Shown one piece after another: positions 1 through 60,920 of a DNA stretch of 64,000 nucleotides. Both the position numbers and the translations under genes were made by a program. The DNA is from Escherichia coli (GTDB taxonomy: Bacteria; Pseudomonadota; Gammaproteobacteria; Enterobacterales; Enterobacteriaceae). Numbering within the stretch: the stretch's first letter is position 1; every line of letters starts with the position of its first letter. The DNA is taken from assembly GCF_003334765.1 (NCBI RefSeq), contig NZ_QOWT01000015.1; one strand, written 5' to 3'. The notes beneath the pieces were generated by a model. The model was not told the origin of the DNA. It ran no database searches and worked only from the letters and a program-made list of their open reading frames with translations.

Positions 1-158
1 AGCAGGGGATTGACCGGATGGCCGGACGTCACTCCGCCGGGGCACACCGAACAGGCCACGCCGGTGGGGGCACCAATGCGCACCCCGGCTGAACCCTGAA
101 CAATGCTACCGCCATACTGCGTCATGTCGCCCTGACGCGCTGCCGGTTTTCCGCTCAT
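1..158 (-). CDS. rhsA: Rhs element core protein, N-terminal 52 codons only (gene continues beyond the window start)
   Basis: Minus-strand ATG at 156-158; translation MSGKPAARQGDMTQYGGSIVQGSAGVRIGAPTGVACSVCPGG is the conserved Rhs N-terminus; position next to yibF as in K-12. Confidence 0.7.
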   Translation of the reverse strand, partial: MSGKPAARQGDMTQYGGSIVQGSAGVRIGAPTGVACSVCPGGVTSGHPVNPL

Positions 159-385
159 TTCTCATCCTTGTTTTATCGGGTTATTTGTCTGCTGACAGGC
201 GAAACCCTACAGATTTATAAGAAAGCCTGAAGTGAGATATCCATCAGAGTGAAATAATTAGGAAAATATTTATATCACCATGATAAATATGTGATTTATT
301 TGGAAGTAACAAACCATCAACATTTTCTGCCCTTTTTCCCATCACCAGGCCATACTGATATTTTTCCTCGCACAAAGGACTCGGC

Positions 386-994
386 ATGAAACTCGTCGGT
401 AGCTACACCAGCCCGTTTGTACGCAAACTTTCTATTCTGTTGTTAGAAAAGGGCATAACTTTCGAATTTATTAATGAACTGCCCTATAACGCGGACAACG
501 GCGTGGCGCAATTTAACCCGTTAGGAAAAGTGCCGGTGCTGGTGACCGAAGAGGGCGAATGCTGGTTTGATTCGCCGATCATCGCTGAATATATTGAATT
601 AATGAATGTCGCTCCGGCGATGTTGCCGCGCGATCCGCTGGAGTCGTTGCGGGTGCGCAAAATTGAGGCACTGGCGGATGGCATTATGGATGCCGGGCTG
701 GTATCGGTGCGTGAACAGGCGCGTCCAGCGGCGCAGCAGTCTGAAGATGAATTGTTACGCCAGCGGGAGAAAATCAACCGCAGTCTGGATGTGCTGGAAG
801 GATATCTGGTCGATGGCACACTCAAAACCGATACGGTCAATCTGGCGACTATCGCCATTGCCTGTGCCGTCGGATATCTCAATTTCCGCCGCGTTGCGCC
901 AGGTTGGTGTGTCGACCGCCCACACTTAGTCAAACTGGTCGAAAACCTGTTTAGCCGCGAAAGTTTTGCTCGCACCGAACCGCCAAAGGCTTGA
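386..994 (+). CDS. yibF: Glutathione S-transferase-like protein YibF
   Basis: 202-aa ORF, GST fold-like N-terminus ([14 protein letters not shown]...); synteny upstream of selA. Confidence 0.9.
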
Positions 995-1091
995 TGCGCG
1001 ATATGTCCTCCTGACCCATCTCACGTTACAATCCGTGGTTATGTTAAACGCCCTTCTCCGTGTGAGAGGGCCTTGATCAGCCAGGTTTCCT

Positions 1092-2483
1092 ATGACAACC
1101 GAAACGCGTTCCCTCTATAGTCAACTTCCGGCTATTGATCGCTTATTGCGCGATAGCTCCTTCCTTTCTTTGCGTGATACTTATGGTCACACCCGCGTGG
1201 TGGAATTGTTGCGTCAGATGCTCGACGAAGCGCGAGAAGTGATTCGTGGCAGCCAGACGCTGCCTGCGTGGTGTGAAAACTGGGCGCAAGAAGTCGATGC
1301 CCGGTTGACGAAAGAAGCGCAGAGCGCGCTGCGTCCGGTGATCAACCTGACGGGAACCGTGCTGCATACCAACCTTGGGCGAGCTTTACAGGCGGAAGCC
1401 GCGGTGGAAGCCGTTGCGCAGGCTATGCGTTCGCCAGTGACCCTCGAGTATGATCTGGACGACGCCGGACGCGGACATCGCGATCGGGCGCTGGCGCAGC
1501 TGCTGTGCCGTATTACGGGGGCGGAAGATGCCTGTATCGTCAATAACAATGCGGCGGCGGTGTTATTGATGTTGGCGGCCACTGCCAGCGGAAAAGAGGT
1601 GGTGGTATCTCGCGGCGAACTGGTGGAGATTGGCGGCGCGTTTCGTATTCCCGATGTTATGCGTCAGGCAGGCTGCACCCTACACGAAGTAGGGACCACC
1701 AACCGCACGCACGCGAATGATTATCGTCAGGCGGTGAATGAAAATACCGCACTGTTGATGAAAGTACATACCAGTAACTACAGCATTCAGGGGTTCACCA
1801 AAGCGATAGATGAAGCGGAACTGGTGGCGCTCGGCAAAGAGCTGGATGTTCCCGTAGTGACTGATTTAGGCAGTGGCTCGCTGGTCGATCTTAGCCAGTA
1901 CGGTTTGCCGAAAGAGCCAATGCCGCAGGAGTTGATTGCGGCGGGCGTCAGTCTGGTGAGTTTCTCCGGCGACAAGTTGTTAGGCGGGCCGCAGGCAGGA
2001 ATTATTGTTGGTAAAAAAGAGATGATCGCCCGCCTGCAAAGCCACCCGCTGAAGCGTGCATTACGCGCGGATAAAATGACCCTCGCGGCGCTGGAAGCCA
2101 CGTTGCGTCTTTATTTACACCCTGAAGCTCTGAGTGAAAAATTACCGACCCTGCGCCTGCTTACCCGCAGCGCAGAGGTCATTCAAATCCAGGCACAACG
2201 TTTACAGGCCCCCCTTGCCGCACATTACGGCGCGGAGTTTGCGGTACAGGTTATGCCATGTCTTTCGCAGATTGGCAGTGGTTCGCTGCCGGTTGATCGC
2301 CTGCCGAGCGCGGCATTAACGTTTACACCCCATGATGGACGCGGTAGCCACCTTGAGTCATTAGCCGCCCGCTGGCGTGAATTGCCAGTGCCGGTGATTG
2401 GTCGTATTTATGACGGACGATTGTGGCTGGATTTACGCTGCCTTGAAGATGAGCAACGGTTTTTGGAGATGTTGTTGAAATGA
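1092..2483 (+). CDS. selA: L-seryl-tRNA(Sec) selenium transferase
   Basis: 463-aa ORF; stop overlaps selB start (ATGA at 2480-2483). Confidence 0.93.
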
Positions 2484-4383: not shown

Positions 4384-4419
4384 AGCACATTGTTTAATGA
4401 ATACAATGTGCTTTTTATT
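4384..4419 (+). terminator. Rho-independent terminator of selAB
   Basis: Inverted repeat agcacattg / caatgtgct followed by ttttatt, in an AT-rich spacer. Confidence 0.7.
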
Positions 4420-5665: not shown

Positions 5666-5829
5666 TCATCATTTCCACAACGGCTGGCAAATTGTCAGCC
5701 GCTTTTTCAACTATCTCTGTAACCCTTGCCCGTAAATTCGTGATAGCTGTCGTAAAGCTGTTACCGACTGGCGAAGATTTCGCCAGTCACGTCTACCCTT
5801 GTTATACCTCACACCGCAAGGAGACGATC

Positions 5830-7368
5830 ATGACCAATAATCCCCCTTCAGCACAGATTAAGCCCGGCGAGTATGGTTTCCCCCTCAAGTTAAAAGCCCG
5901 CTATGACAACTTTATTGGCGGCGAATGGGTAGCCCCTGCCGACGGCGAGTATTACCAGAATCTGACGCCGGTGACCGGGCAGCTGCTGTGCGAAGTGGCG
6001 TCTTCGGGCAAACGAGACATCGATCTGGCGCTGGATGCTGCGCACAAAGTGAAAGATAAATGGGCGCACACCTCGGTGCAGGATCGTGCGGCGATTCTGT
6101 TTAAGATTGCCGATCGAATGGAACAAAACCTCGAGCTGTTAGCGACAGCTGAAACCTGGGATAACGGCAAACCCATTCGCGAAACCAGTGCTGCGGATGT
6201 ACCGCTGGCGATTGACCATTTCCGCTATTTCGCCTCGTGTATTCGGGCGCAGGAAGGTGGGATCAGTGAAGTTGATAGCGAAACCGTGGCCTATCATTTC
6301 CATGAACCGTTAGGCGTGGTGGGGCAGATTATCCCGTGGAACTTCCCGCTGCTGATGGCGAGCTGGAAAATGGCTCCCGCGCTGGCGGCGGGCAACTGTG
6401 TGGTGCTGAAACCCGCACGTCTTACCCCGCTTTCTGTACTGCTGCTAATGGAAATTGTCGGTGATTTACTGCCGCCGGGCGTGGTGAACGTGGTCAATGG
6501 CGCAGGTGGGGTAATTGGCGAATATCTGGCGACCTCGAAACGCATCGCCAAAGTGGCGTTTACCGGCTCAACGGAAGTGGGCCAACAAATTATGCAATAC
6601 GCAACGCAAAACATTATTCCGGTGACGCTGGAGTTGGGCGGTAAGTAGCCAAATATCTTCTTTGCTGATGTGATGGATGAAGAAGATGCCTTTTTCGATA
6701 AAGCGCTGGAAGGCTTTGCACTGTTTGCCTTTAACCAGGGCGAAGTTTGCACCTGTCCGAGTCGTGCTTTAGTGCAGGAATCTATCTACGAACGCTTTAT
6801 GGAACGCGCCATCCGCCGTGTCGAAAGCATTCGTAGCGGTAACCCGCTCGACAGCGTGACGCAAATGGGCGCGCAGGTTTCTCACGGGCAACTGGAAACC
6901 ATCCTCAACTACATTGATATCGGTAAAAAAGAGGGCGCTGACGTGCTCACAGGCGGGCGGCGCAAGCTGCTGGAAGGTGAACTGAAAGACGGCTACTACC
7001 TCGAACCGACGATTCTGTTTGGTCAGAACAATATGCGGGTGTTCCAGGAGGAGATTTTTGGCCCGGTGCTGGCGGTGACCACCTTCAAAACGATGGAAGA
7101 AGCGCTGGAGCTGGCGAACGATACGCAATATGGCCTGGGCGCGGGCGTCTGGAGCCGCAACGGTAATCTGGCCTATAAGATGGGGCGCGGCATACAGGCT
7201 GGGCGCGTGTGGACCAACTGTTATCACGCTTACCCGGCACATGCGGCGTTTGGTGGCTACAAACAATCAGGTATCGGTCGCGAAACCCACAAGATGATGC
7301 TGGAGCATTACCAGCAAACCAAGTGCCTGCTGGTGAGCTACTCGGATAAACCGTTGGGGCTGTTCTGA
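5830..7368 (+). pseudogene. aldB: Aldehyde dehydrogenase B, interrupted by an in-frame TAG at 6646-6648
   Basis: A continuous 513-codon frame is split into ORFs 5692-6648 and 6670-7368 in the same frame; ALDH catalytic Glu motif LELGGK sits immediately before the stop and the Cys motif [12 protein letters not shown] follows it. Confidence 0.85.
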
Positions 7369-13109: not shown

Positions 13110-13764
13110 GCGCACCTCCCCAGATAGCGTCGATTTGCGCATGGAAATCGCCAGCCACTTGCGCCGGATTTGCCGCGCCTGCCAGTGCCCGCCCGGCAAT
13201 AAACGCTTTCACGCGGATATCTTTAAACAGCGGCAGGTCAGCAGGGGTAATCCCGCCAGTAATGGAAAGCTCAAGGCCGATATCTGAAAGCGCCTTCATG
13301 CGTGCCAGATCGGCTTCGCCCCACTGTTGCCCGCTGGCCTGTGCATCACGACCGCGATGATAAATGGCCTGCCGCACGCCAATACGATGCCAGTCGCGGG
13401 CGTCGTCCAGCGTCCAGTTACCGAACAGCTCTATCTGAATTTCACCCCCGCAGCGTTGTGCCATTGCGTGGCCTTTTTCTACCGTCGCGAGCGGCGCGGC
13501 GCAGATGATGGTCATCCAGTTAGCGCCTGCGCCAAACGCCTGTTGCGCGAGCGTTTCACCAGCGTCGGCGACCTTCCAGTCAGCAACGATGATTTTGTCC
13601 GGGCACTGTTCGCGCAAGGCTTTCACCGCGCCAAGCCCTTCGTTTAAACAGAGAATGGTGCCCGCTTCGACGATATCGACGCTGTCTTTTAACAGCGTCA
13701 CGTCGCGCTGCGCGGCTTCAAGTGATGAGTGGTCGAGGGCCAGTTGCAGAAGTGGTCGGCTCAT
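13102..13764 (-). CDS. sgbH: 3-keto-L-gulonate-6-phosphate decarboxylase
   Basis: 220-aa ORF; AAGGAG RBS upstream of ATG at 13762-13764. Confidence 0.92.
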
Positions 13765-15256
13765 AATGTGTGCTCCTTAATGCGGGCGTGAAAGCCCTGA
13801 AGTGCGGCAATGAGATGCTGATAACGTTGATATTTTTTTGGTAAAGCTGATGGGCGGTCATATCTGGCAGCAGGGTGCGCACCGGGTGTCGCAAGTCACG
13901 TTGGGCTTCGCTGAAGTTGTGATAAACCCCGGTGCCGACGCGGGCGGCAAGGGCCGCACCAAAGCAGCCGGTTTCTTCCACCTGCGGCAGCTCGATACGC
14001 AGACCGCTGACGTCCGCCAGCATTTGCATCCAGACATCGGAGTGCGCCGGGCCGCCAGTGACGCGTAGGGTGTGAACATCAGTAAAACGTTCGCGCATTC
14101 GGTTGAGGTGGGTCATATGGCTGAACACCACCCCTTCATAGATGGCCTGCAACAGGTGCGCGCGGGTGTGAATGGCCTGCATCCCGTAGAAACCACTGGT
14201 CATCTCGAGTCCGGCGTTGCTGCCGTACAGGAACGGCAGGAAAAAGAGATCGCCCCCAGCCTTCGGCAAGCTGGCAACGGCCTGATTGATCTCATCAAAC
14301 GAGATTTCTCCCCACTGTGCGGTAAACCATTCGAGGTTGCCGGAAGAGGTAGGGCTGGCTTCGTGAACGATAAATTCACCATCGTTAACGTAGCGACCAT
14401 AGACATACGGATGCGCTTCACCGTCACGTAAACCGCGGGTTATGCCGCTGGTCACCGCCCAGGTCCCCATCACCGCATTGAGGGTAAATTCGTCTTCGAT
14501 CCCGGCGCAGAGTGCGGTGGAAACCACATCAAACAGGCCGCCAACAACGGGCGTACCCGCTTTCAGACCGGTCAGGGCGGCTGTCTGAGCGGTGATCTCC
14601 CCGCAGATTTCGGCAGATCCGACAACAGGCGGCAGGGCGTGATTGATTTCAGCGATCCCCAGCCAGTCGGTGAGGCACGGGTCATATTCCCCAAGACTCA
14701 TGTTGTAGAGGTTGGACTCGGAAATATTGCTCTCTTCACAGCCTTTGACGCCAGTTAAACACCAGCGCAGGTAGTCGTGCGTCATCATCACGCAGCCAAT
14801 TTGCGCGTAGCGTTCTGGTTCGTGCTCTTTCAGCCAGCGTAACAGCGACACCGGATGCCCGGTCCACAAGGTTTGTCGGGTCAGCGGGTAGAGTTTTTCC
14901 GGGATGCCATCTTCCTGCCAGCGACGAACGATTTCCATCGCCCGGCGGTCCGAGGACAAAATAGCATTCCCGAGCGGTTTGTCGTTTTTATCCAGCAAAA
15001 ACAAGCCCTTTCCCTGTGCGGAGATGCCGATACCGACAATTTGTTCCCCGCTAACACCAGAATGAGTAAGCAGGGCGCGAATGACAGCCATGCAGCATTG
15101 CCACAGTTCTGCCATATCGCGCTCTGCCCAGCCTGGCTGCGGGCTTAATGCGCACAGCGGCAGGCGCTGCACGCCTGCCTCCCGGCCTTCGCGGTCATAC
15201 AGCCCGGCTTTCAGCCAGCTACCGCCACAATCTAACCCCAGCCAGTATTGCGTCAT
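13718..15256 (-). CDS. lyxK: L-xylulose kinase, apparently frameshifted at the C-terminus (canonical stop would be at 13761-13763)
   Basis: FGGY-kinase N-terminus (GLDCGGSWLK); ORF is 512 aa rather than 498; tail after LYQK is low-complexity read-through into sgbH; an alternative frame gives a clean ...[25 protein letters not shown] stop. Confidence 0.85.
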   Translation of the reverse strand: MTQYWLGLDCGGSWLKAGLYDREGREAGVQRLPLCALSPQPGWAERDMAELWQCCMAVIRALLTHSGVSGEQIVGIGISAQGKGLFLLDKNDKPLGNAILSSDRRAMEIVRRWQEDGIPEKLYPLTRQTLWTGHPVSLLRWLKEHEPERYAQIGCVMMTHDYLRWCLTGVKGCEESNISESNLYNMSLGEYDPCLTDWLGIAEINHALPPVVGSAEICGEITAQTAALTGLKAGTPVVGGLFDVVSTALCAGIEDEFTLNAVMGTWAVTSGITRGLRDGEAHPYVYGRYVNDGEFIVHEASPTSSGNLEWFTAQWGEISFDEINQAVASLPKAGGDLFFLPFLYGSNAGLEMTSGFYGMQAIHTRAHLLQAIYEGVVFSHMTHLNRMRERFTDVHTLRVTGGPAHSDVWMQMLADVSGLRIELPQVEETGCFGAALAARVGTGVYHNFSEAQRDLRHPVRTLLPDMTAHQLYQKNINVISISLPHFRAFTPALRSTHYEPTTSATGPRPLIT

Positions 15257-21278: not shown

Positions 21279-21376
21279 GCCAGATGCGGCGTAAACGCCT
21301 TATCCGGCCTACAAATTCTTCCAAATTCAATATATTGCAGAAATCATGTAGGCCTGATAAGCGTAGCGCATCAGGC
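21279..21376. repeat. REP/BIME element
   Basis: gccagatgcggcgtaaacgccttatccggcctac ... gtaggcctgataagcgtagcgcatcaggc in the ysaA/avtA convergent spacer. Confidence 0.8.
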
Positions 21377-40055: not shown

Positions 40056-40288
40056 ATCGCTAAATAATACAGCAACCTTTAATAATCTTCTGCTGAATAA
40101 AGATTATCTCATATATTAATTTTATGAGATTTTTTTAGGATTATATCAAGGAGAAGAAACAAACTTATTAAGCTAGAATAGCCACGGGTGCTTGAGACTG
40201 TTTGTCTCAGGTATTCACCGAAAGGCAGACAGAGAAAAGCCCCACCTGACTATAAATCAAAGTTGGAAATCAACACAGGAGGCTGGGA

Positions 40289-40441
40289 ATGCCGCAGAAA
40301 TATAGATTACTTTCTTTAATAGTGATTTGTTTCACGCTTTTATTTTTCACCTGGATGATAAGAGATTCACTGTGTGAATTGCATATTAAACAGGAGAGTT
40401 ATGAGCTGGCGGCGTTTTTAGCCTGCAAATTGAAAGAGTAA
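40289..40441 (+). CDS. hokA: Hok-family type I toxin (50 aa)
   Basis: Below the ORF-track cutoff; AGGAGG RBS at 40276-40281; translation MPQKYRLLSLIVICFTLLFFTWMIRDSLCELHIKQESYELAAFLACKLKE is a Hok/Gef peptide with one TM helix. Confidence 0.85.
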   Translation: MPQKYRLLSLIVICFTLLFFTWMIRDSLCELHIKQESYELAAFLACKLKE

Positions 40442-40572: not shown

Positions 40573-40601
40573 AAAAAAATCCCCGCCAAATGGCAGGGAT
40601 C
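40573..40601 (-). terminator. Rho-independent terminator of cspA
   Basis: On the minus strand: ccctgcc attt ggcgggg followed by attttttt, just 3' of the cspA stop. Confidence 0.65.
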
Positions 40602-40627
40602 TTAGATTCTGTGCTTTTAAGCAGAGA

Positions 40628-40840
40628 TTACAGGCTGGTTACGTTACCAGCTGCCGGGCCTTTAGCGCCGCTTTCGATGGTGAAGGACACTTTCTGACCT
40701 TCGTCCAGAGATTTGTAACCATCGTTCTGGATAGCAGAGAAGTGTACGAACACATCTTTAGAGCCATCGTCAGGAGTGATGAAGCCGAAGCCTTTGTCAG
40801 CGTTGAACCATTTTACGATACCAGTCATTTTACCGGACAT
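40628..40840 (-). CDS. cspA: Major cold-shock protein CspA
   Basis: 70-aa [24 protein letters not shown]... with RNP motifs. Confidence 0.97.
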
Positions 40841-41060
40841 AGTGTATTACCTTTAATAATTAAGTGTGCCTTTCGGCGATATGGCGTGCTTTACAGATTT
40901 TGAAGCGTTAAAGGAATGTGCACTACGAGGGGTATCAACGATAACTCTTGAAGGGACTTGCCTTACTACACTGCTTTAATGGTCTGTACGTCAAACCGTT
41001 GATGTGCATTAAGCCACGCATTGGCGGGTGATGCAACAATTATTTTTCATATTTATGATT
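40841..41060 (-). promoter_or_regulatory. cspA long 5' UTR and promoter with UP element
   Basis: On the minus strand: -35 TTGCAT (41031-41036), 17-bp spacer, -10 CTTAAT (41008-41013), AT-rich UP element upstream; leaves a ~160-nt leader. Confidence 0.75.
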
Positions 41061-52196: not shown

Positions 52197-52362
<166 letters not shown>

Positions 52363-52422
52363 GCGAAGCGAGAGAACGTTGCGCCAGCAACGGCCCGCAG
52401 GGCGAGCCACGAAGTGGCGAGT

Positions 52423-52530
52423 AATCCTCTATCACCGACCAAATTCGAAAAGCCTGCTCAACGAGCAGGCTTTTTTGCATCTGCAGCTCATGAGGATGAG
52501 AACCTCCGGGGGCAGGGAGGTTCGACTCGA
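52423..52530 (+). repeat. Direct repeat copy 2 (tRNA-Pro 3' fragment plus terminator copy)
   Basis: Perfect 108-bp match to 52255-52362; the six-frame ORF 52156-52680 shows the same 37-residue peptide twice. Confidence 0.9.
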
Positions 52531-52531
52531 C

Positions 52532-52617
52532 GTAGGCCTGATAAGACGCGTCAGCGTCGCATCAGGCAAATGTGCCGGCCATTGTCGGATGCGGCGCGAC
52601 CGCCTTATTCGACCTAC
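52532..52617. repeat. REP/BIME element
   Basis: gtaggcctgataagacgcgtcagcgtcgcatcaggc ... gccggccattgtcggatgcggcgcgaccgccttattcgacctac. Confidence 0.75.
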
Positions 52618-54828: not shown

Positions 54829-54928
54829 GCCTGATGCGCTCCGCTTATCAGGCCTACGAAAATTCTGCAATGTATTGAATTTGCACGATTTTGTAGGCCG
54901 GATAAGGCGTTAACGCCGCATCCGGCAT
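54829..54928. repeat. REP/BIME element
   Basis: gcctgatgcgctccgcttatcaggcctac ... gtaggccggataaggcgttaacgccgcatccggcat between dppA and dppB. Confidence 0.8.
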
Positions 54929-60399: not shown

Positions 60400-60920
60400 A
60401 GTCGAATACGCAGTATGTAAAAAATGAGGCAACAGATTCACTGGGGAGGTCGCGAGGAGGCGCAATTCTACAAAATTGCGCATTTCACTACCAGTCTGGA
60501 GTCAGCCCGGATATGAACTGCAACTATTGCAAATAAAGAAATTAAGCTGGAAGGCATCGCGCAATGAGGAAGATTGCCGGGTGCTGACAGTAAAAAGCAA
60601 TCGTAGAATCAGCGGCAAGCCGGAAAGGTTCCGGTGAGGCGCAATGTTGCGGGGGCTTTATCCCTGGTGGCATTGGTTGCTGGAGAGAGAAAACCCCCGC
60701 ACGTTGCAGGTATGCACCTGACAACACCACGGGGGCTAATCTTGACTCTAGACCACTCAAGAATAGCCGCGAAACGTTGTCATTACAACACAGGCGGCTA
60801 TATGACGTTCGCAGAGCTGGGCATGGCCTTCTGGCATGATTTAGCGGCTCCGGTCATTGCTGGCATTCTTGCCAGTATGATCGTGAACTGGCTGAACAAG
60901 CGGAAGTAACGTGTCATGCG
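60400..60920. repeat. Long direct repeat LDR-D locus (ldrD mRNA leader and antisense rdlD region); boundaries approximate
   Basis: Region carrying the ldrD peptide gene; extent inferred from the known ~0.5-kb LDR unit, not mapped from sequence. Confidence 0.4.
60802..60909 (+). CDS. ldrD: Type I toxin LdrD (35 aa)
   Basis: Translation MTFAELGMAFWHDLAAPVIAGILASMIVNWLNKRK; the 91-aa ORF 60634-60909 is an artefactual N-terminal extension. Confidence 0.85.
   Translation: MTFAELGMAFWHDLAAPVIAGILASMIVNWLNKRK

Follow-up and report, generated by a model that had tools for sequence, protein, structure and literature searches.

The first 158 nt of the window (the whole stretch of Escherichia coli DNA that was analysed, 64,000 nt in length) are, with very little doubt, the 5' end of an Rhs gene at the classical rhsA locus, transcribed leftward and off the start of the window. 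The feature is an already known one. It is the textbook E. coli rhsA locus, described since 1984–1990, and nothing about it is novel. Of the roughly 1380–1410 codons of the gene, 52 are visible here. Its coding part and its translation start are as follows.

1..158, minus strand: 5' end of the rhsA-locus Rhs core gene (codons 1–52 plus two bases of codon 53)
156..169, minus strand: translation start, read from the sequence (AAGGA Shine-Dalgarno at 169–165, 6-nt spacer, ATG at 158–156)

The Rhs reading frame at the window start

Direct translation of positions 1–158 on the minus strand gave MSGKPAARQGDMTQYGGSIVQGSAGVRIGAPTGVACSVCPGGVTSGHPVNPL, with no stop codon. The initiating ATG at 158–156 is the complement of the CAT at 156–158, and from there the frame runs leftward to the window edge, where the two bases of codon 53 are included. 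A preliminary description of this DNA had taken the minus-strand frame ending at 156–158 to encode the conserved Rhs N-terminus, and the profile search bore this out. Residues 1–52, beginning with the MSGKPAARQGD that opens the N-terminal core, matched positions 1–52 of the 1261-position NCBIfam model RHS_core (NF041261) with an E-value of 8.2e-28. The score was 96.8 bits, set against a curated whole-protein cutoff of 2000, because just 52 residues fall inside the window. When K-12 RhsA was searched against the 64 kb by tblastn, 52/52 residues were identical (E = 2e-27), and no second Rhs-like match was found anywhere in the 64-kb window.

Identity of the locus

The DNA of window positions 1–1100 was 100% identical to that of K-12 MG1655 and of many other E. 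coli, in which the annotation reads rhsA, yibF, selA. In K-12, the 4134-nt rhsA gene diverges from yibF-selA-selB-yiaY-aldB, and the same order and orientation were seen in the window. The locus was identified as rhsA because of this synteny with yibF-selA-selB. The nearest complete genome was that of strain CPF6, with 2 mismatches over 25 kb by megablast and 5 SNPs over 63 kb. The neighbouring gene is listed below.

386..994, plus strand: yibF, glutathione S-transferase (202-aa ORF; WP_000779792.1 in K-12, CPF6 and others)

Jackson et al. 2009 (PMC2935791) number this site, which lies at about 3.76 Mb with yibF and yibH on either side, as rhs locus 10 of E. coli. The classical Rhs layout consists of a G+C-rich core of ~1200 residues and an A+T-rich variable extension (PMC2935791), and the composition of the window fits this: the G+C content was 0.65–0.70 across the Rhs coding part (1–150) and 0.28–0.31 around 200–350, in the leader.

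The K-12 locus, between yibF and yibH, comprises rhsA, yibA, an orphan tip, yibG, a second orphan tip and an Imm57 pseudogene. The window resembles it in the complete identity of positions 1–1100, in the divergent orientation relative to yibF-selA-selB and in the first 52 residues of the protein. It differs from K-12 by SNPs at 5696, 6647 and 13096 (within the first 13.8 kb), by a frameshift in lyxK and by an amber codon in aldB. A further difference may or may not occur here, namely the loss of the Ntox34 tip and yibA, both of which are gone from the nearest genomes.

The leader and the boundary of the variable island

The region between the Rhs start codon and yibF was divided into two parts.

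159..348, no strand assigned: AT-rich leader of the Rhs element, within the strain-variable island and absent from empty-site genomes
349..385, plus strand: conserved 5' leader of yibF, which bounds the variable island on the right (37 bp identical to an empty-site genome)

The empty-site genome was that of UPEC69, in which yibH is followed by 70 bp and then by yibF. Upstream of yibF, the only sequence that it has in common with the window is the last 37 bp before the ATG, and the strain-variable island therefore covers window positions 1–348. This shows the island boundary to lie at about position 348; of the island sequence inside the window, 158 nt are coding and about 190 nt belong to the AT-rich leader.

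A simple consensus scan of positions 159–385 found no sigma-70-like promoter, the sole matches being inside yibF, and no Rfam family matched within 1–385. A 47-aa minus-strand ORF at 244–387 was treated as spurious because of its place within the AT-rich leader, its overlap with the start of yibF and the lack, in both K-12 and CPF6, of any CDS annotated between the Rhs gene and yibF.

Two further observations were made on this interval. Because conservation upstream of the yibF ATG extends over just 37 bp, the yibF promoter must differ between the two states of the site, with the island leader supplying it at occupied sites and readthrough from yibH, 70 bp away, at empty ones. Separately, the 10-mer TTATATCACC is common to the spacer of the empty UPEC69 site and the leader in the window (at about 272–281).

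Strain variability of the locus

The Rhs 5' end was found at 13,462 places in 5426 complete genomes, with a median of 3 per genome, and adjoined yibF in only 3745 of the 5426. At least 80% of the K-12 yibF–yibH interval was present in only 2425/5426. With several copies per genome and both occupied and empty sites, the element is at once a multi-copy repeat and a strain-variable island, and the earlier statement that Rhs loci are recombination-prone and variable between strains is supported.

Locus classes were read from an evenly spaced sample (40 rows) of the ranking of genomes by their coverage of the K-12 yibF–yibH interval. The sample contained K-12-like loci, fused loci (O157:H7 included), truncated cores, IS-disrupted loci, loci with other tips accompanied by NTF2-fold immunity genes, and empty sites (9/40). 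The element was wholly absent from about 20–30% of genomes. Even genomes near-identical to the window in the flank showed at least three different arrangements beyond it. The preliminary description had also expected the unseen upstream region to be where strains differ most. For the arrangements of the relatives this was correct; the word 'upstream' applies in window coordinates, and in terms of the gene the region lies downstream of the start codon.

Lineage markers and other features of the window

At aldB codon 273 (6646–6648, plus strand), the window has TAG where K-12 and CPF6 have TCG (Ser), so that aldB is split into ORFs of 272 and ~231 aa. Of the 5170 complete E. coli genomes matching this stretch, none carried the amber allele. 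An exact-protein lookup of the truncated AldB found it in 18 public contigs (GCA_965137835.1 and Logan SRR1122539 among them) that were 100% identical to the window where they overlapped it. Since 18 contigs carry the allele, it was taken as a real lineage marker and not as an error. All of them stop short of the Rhs gene, one starting at window position 161, right at the start codon, and the rest at 4392. Short-read assembly would be expected to break a contig at a place such as 161, where a repeat begins. As no complete genome was identical to the window and the contigs of the lineage stop before Rhs, the unseen side of the locus was inferred from relatives.

Two other differences bear on the lineage. 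In lyxK (minus strand, ~13832–13839), the window has a run of seven T, as opposed to eight in K-12; in this it agrees with CPF6, whose lyxK is flagged as frameshifted by RefSeq. CPF6 carries an insertion of IS150 (~1.45 kb) at the position corresponding to window ~40264, next to hokA, and the window is without it. In the same hokA/sok region, near the site of the CPF6 insertion, an Rfam sok match was found at 40186–40291. The following features reached Rfam gathering thresholds.

21313–21355, plus strand, and 54850–54892, minus strand: ES036, two copies
40573–41000, minus strand: cspA thermoregulator
52197–52270, plus strand: tRNA (tRNA-Pro in the CPF6 annotation)
52308–52441, plus strand: RtT
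52535–52614, minus strand: naRNA4
60688–60753, minus strand: rdlD antitoxin, adjoining ldrD

The Rfam RNA matches across the window were all expected for such a region of E. coli.

Intact relatives: K-12 and fused forms

In K-12, rhsA encodes a protein of 1377 aa that scored 2647 bits against RHS_core and ends in an Ntox34 tip (E = 3.6e-43). Between it and yibH lie, in this order, yibA, an orphan core fragment that carries a second tip, yibG (Sel1-repeat), a further orphan fragment and an Imm57 gene with a frameshift. Among the six nearest genomes examined, four (CPF6, BS74R-D, Z1323CEC0017 and Z1323HEC0011) encode instead a 1409-aa Rhs protein with yibG directly after it; the CPF6 protein scored 2650 bits (cutoff 2000). 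The full-length relatives carry YD repeats, DUF6531 at 46–123, Rhs_assc_core at 1170–1247 and an RHS domain, and their genes have yibA or yibG directly after them, together with orphan core fragments and the Imm57 pseudogene. The 1409-aa protein is identical to K-12 RhsA up to residue ~1240 and then bears the tip that is an orphan in K-12. The two forms diverge from residue 1240, at ...NPV(T/I)N(T/V)DP(L/Q)GL, and no Pfam family matched the tip of the fused form.

What separates the K-12 layout from the fused one is a deletion between two copies of a 453-bp sequence, 95% identical to each other, one at the end of the core and the other in the orphan core fragment. The fused arrangement arises by recombination across this repeat, which parallels Salmonella: experiments on Salmonella Typhimurium LT2 showed that the main Rhs gene and the orphan recombine by way of a repeat of 522 bp and 95% identity (Koskiniemi et al. 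2014, PMC3967940). In both cases a repeat is shared by core and orphan, and recombination puts the orphan toxin on the core. The species and the locus differ, however, and in LT2 the event followed duplication in evolving cultures, whereas natural isolates of E. coli appear to be polymorphic for a fixed deletion through which the earlier tip and yibA have been lost. For EHEC EDL933, both the K-12-like and the fused version of rhsA are treated in the literature (PMC7216683). The fused loci (EDL933_4854 followed by a Sel1-like gene, CPF6 and others) share their 5' end and flank with the window. The fused form, with the 1409-aa core joined to the earlier orphan tip and followed by yibG as in CPF6, is the most likely form of an intact gene in this strain.

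As a separate observation, yibG of CPF6, the presumed immunity gene after the fused Rhs gene, is flagged as frameshifted while the toxin gene is intact, which may reflect either a sequencing error or a real loss; yibG is intact in BS74R-D and in both Z1323 genomes.

Internally deleted cores and the integrity of the gene

The remaining two of the six closest genomes, CP8-3_Sichuan and LR-64-2, carry the 158 nt of the window unchanged and then, after L66, in-frame core deletions of 2052 and 2727 nt, respectively. The deletions start about 40 nt beyond the window edge. The claim that the Rhs gene extends past the window start therefore holds as far as the frame is open to the edge, and has to be qualified by the two genomes in six that are deleted after codon 66.

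Further deleted alleles were found with probes built from the CP8-3_Sichuan and LR-64-2 junctions. CFSAN061772, a 100% match to window 1–1100, has lost 2565 nt in frame, leaving a 522-aa ORF that is annotated as intact, and ABW_A32 has lost 1946 + 163 nt of the rhsA core. Three of the four mapped deleted alleles are thus in frame. CP8-3_Sichuan and LR-64-2 have their exact left breakpoint in common (immediately after GCCCTG, following L66) and differ at their right ends. CFSAN061772 and ABW_A32 share a left breakpoint near codon 100–103, and CP8-3_Sichuan and ABW_A32 share their exact right breakpoint, before ACCGGTGAG. All four left breakpoints fall at rhsA CDS nt ~198–309, 40–150 nt past window position 1. 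As two of the alleles were found with probes made from the junctions of the first two, this sharing of breakpoints may in part be an ascertainment bias.

The frequency of the junctions was estimated with 40-nt probes that seed only across the junction, 90-nt probes being confounded by the joining of nearby pieces. The exact junctions were rare, occurring in 1 and 4 of the 5426 genomes. At least 112 genomes have, at rhsA or rhsC, the N-terminal fragment and a late-core fragment no more than about 545 nt apart. It is very improbable, in our estimate, that the recurrence of such deletions marks hot spots, or selection for a shell-less 'mini-Rhs' composed of the PAAR-like N-terminus, the late core and the toxin.

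These alleles nevertheless define the main alternative for the strain under study, in which the 158 nt would be the retained 5' end of an rhsA gene decayed by internal deletion or frameshift, with no functional shell-enclosed toxin. Two of the six nearest genomes begin with the same 158 nt and are deleted, the CFSAN061772 and ABW_A32 alleles add deletions that start near codon 100–103, and the close pairing of N-terminal and late-core fragments in at least 112 genomes points the same way. On the other side, the exact junctions occur in just 4 and 1 of 5426 genomes, CPF6, which is the nearest, and three other close relatives have the intact 1409-aa gene, and the K-12 gene is intact too. Decay is accordingly considered somewhat unlikely, and rhsA is probably full-length in this strain.

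A PAAR-like N-terminal fragment and the start of the shell

The 52 visible residues were divided as follows.

18..158, minus strand: putative PAAR-like N-terminal fragment, codons 1–47, equivalent to Tse5-NT (M1–K47) in the Tse5 alignment
72..155, minus strand: single PAAR repeat, codons 2–29 (GKPAARQGD...GGSIVQGSAGVRIG), from the alignment to solved PAAR proteins
3..17, minus strand: codons 48–52 (PVNPL), start of DUF6531 and of the N-terminal shell plug, from Pfam DUF6531 and the Tse5 alignment

In all four solved PAAR proteins to which residues 2–29 aligned, the match fell at one and the same place, the last repeat: 9rce_c (71–98 of 99, E = 0.003), 4jiv_D (67–93 of 93, E = 0.027), 4jiw_D and 8gra_J. 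The match to Pfam PAAR_motif (PF05488) covered model positions 51–69 of 70 with an independent E-value of 0.0084, below the family threshold, and that to NCBIfam T6SS_PAAR_dom (NF033420) covered positions 68–94 of 94 with an E-value of 0.0031 and 17.6 bits, against a cutoff of 124. A complete PAAR domain (~90 residues, three repeats) was rejected, as one sub-threshold repeat matched and only the end of the models was covered. The protein begins at M1, so there are no earlier repeats, and the visible part has one PAAR-like repeat but no PAAR domain. The N-terminal fragment is best called PAAR-like, as Tse5-NT is.

In a structure-database comparison, Tse5 (8cp6) was the best solved relative of full-length RhsA (E = 7e-128); the other solved relatives were 7q97, 8qja, Tse15 and Tre23, all of them T6SS Rhs effectors. 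The first residue of the Tse5 shell chain 8cp6_B (P48, PVNPMLG...) aligned to P48 of RhsA (E = 5e-16), in an alignment that took in shell residues 1–95, and DUF6531 spans residues 46–123 of K-12 RhsA (E = 2.2e-17). When residues 1–145 were used to look for homologues, most of the matches were partial, near-identical fragments from E. coli, Shigella, Salmonella and Citrobacter, and nothing was added to this.

Tse5-NT, a 47-residue fragment released by self-cleavage between K47 and P48, is PAAR-like and is needed for secretion (PMC10684867). RhsA and P. aeruginosa Tse5 (PA2684) have in common the 47-residue PAAR-like N-terminus and a shell that starts with PVNP(M/L)LG at residue 48. They differ at residue 47, which is K in Tse5 and H in RhsA, and in the toxin tip, which is pore-forming in Tse5. 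By homology, codons 1–47 would be the whole N-terminal fragment and codons 48–52 the start of the N-terminal plug of the shell. From the alignment with Tse5, we infer that RhsA is self-cleaved between H47 and P48, and that the 47-residue fragment probably binds VgrG; both the processing and the VgrG dependence of the E. coli protein are thus predicted from its homologue.

Proposed function and delivery

Rhs proteins are polymorphic contact-dependent toxins, and the evidence supports the standard model for them. A short N-terminal piece couples such a protein to a delivery machine; where the protein is of the present class, this is VgrG, the spike of a type VI secretion system (T6SS). Some 1200 residues of YD repeats build a closed shell round the variable C-terminal toxin, which is freed by an internal aspartyl protease at PxxxxDPxGL, and the product of a downstream immunity gene shields the producer. 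The constant 5' module, which lies in the window, would supply the translation start and the delivery handle. The variable 3' module and the immunity genes, outside the window, would be exchanged by homologous recombination with orphan fragments.

Judged from its homologues, RhsA would be delivered by a T6SS, and the strain would be expected to have a T6SS able to fire it. No vgrG, hcp, tss or other T6SS gene is annotated at the K-12 locus or in the CPF6 region that matches almost the whole window, and genetic linkage to vgrG, eag or T6SS genes, as used to recognise T6SS effectors, was not found at the locus. K-12 is not known to carry a T6SS, and delivery may therefore not operate in such strains.

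The lack of any T6SS gene near the locus leaves some room for a second alternative, in which the locus is intact but acts mainly inside the producer, as a toxin–antitoxin-like module or as a component of the cell envelope or of capsule export, and not as a T6SS weapon. One study reports Salmonella RHS elements as type II TA-like modules (PMC7043789), and a crosslink of RhsA to the KpsD capsule-export complex is mentioned, in summary, in PMC2935791. However, every close solved relative is a T6SS effector, the N-terminal PAAR-like repeat is placed as in Tse5-NT, a fragment needed for secretion, and a tip, an immunity gene and orphans together make up the modular layout of a competition system. 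Such a role inside the producer is considered very improbable, and a delivered polymorphic toxin remains the preferred reading. That the frame is a chance ORF in GC-rich DNA and not Rhs, for which the shortness of the fragment is the sole point in favour, can be dismissed given its identity to RhsA over all 52 residues (E = 2e-27), its match to RHS_core (E = 8e-28) and a synteny kept in thousands of genomes.

Significance

The finding has little importance beyond annotation, and its practical value is that of a flag: the edge of the window sits in a multi-copy, recombination-prone repeat. Claims on the tip, the immunity genes or the integrity of the gene in this strain need the adjacent 5–10 kb, ideally from long reads. 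If the 'mini-Rhs' reading of the recurrent deletions were true, the 5' end seen in the window would be the constant module of that process.
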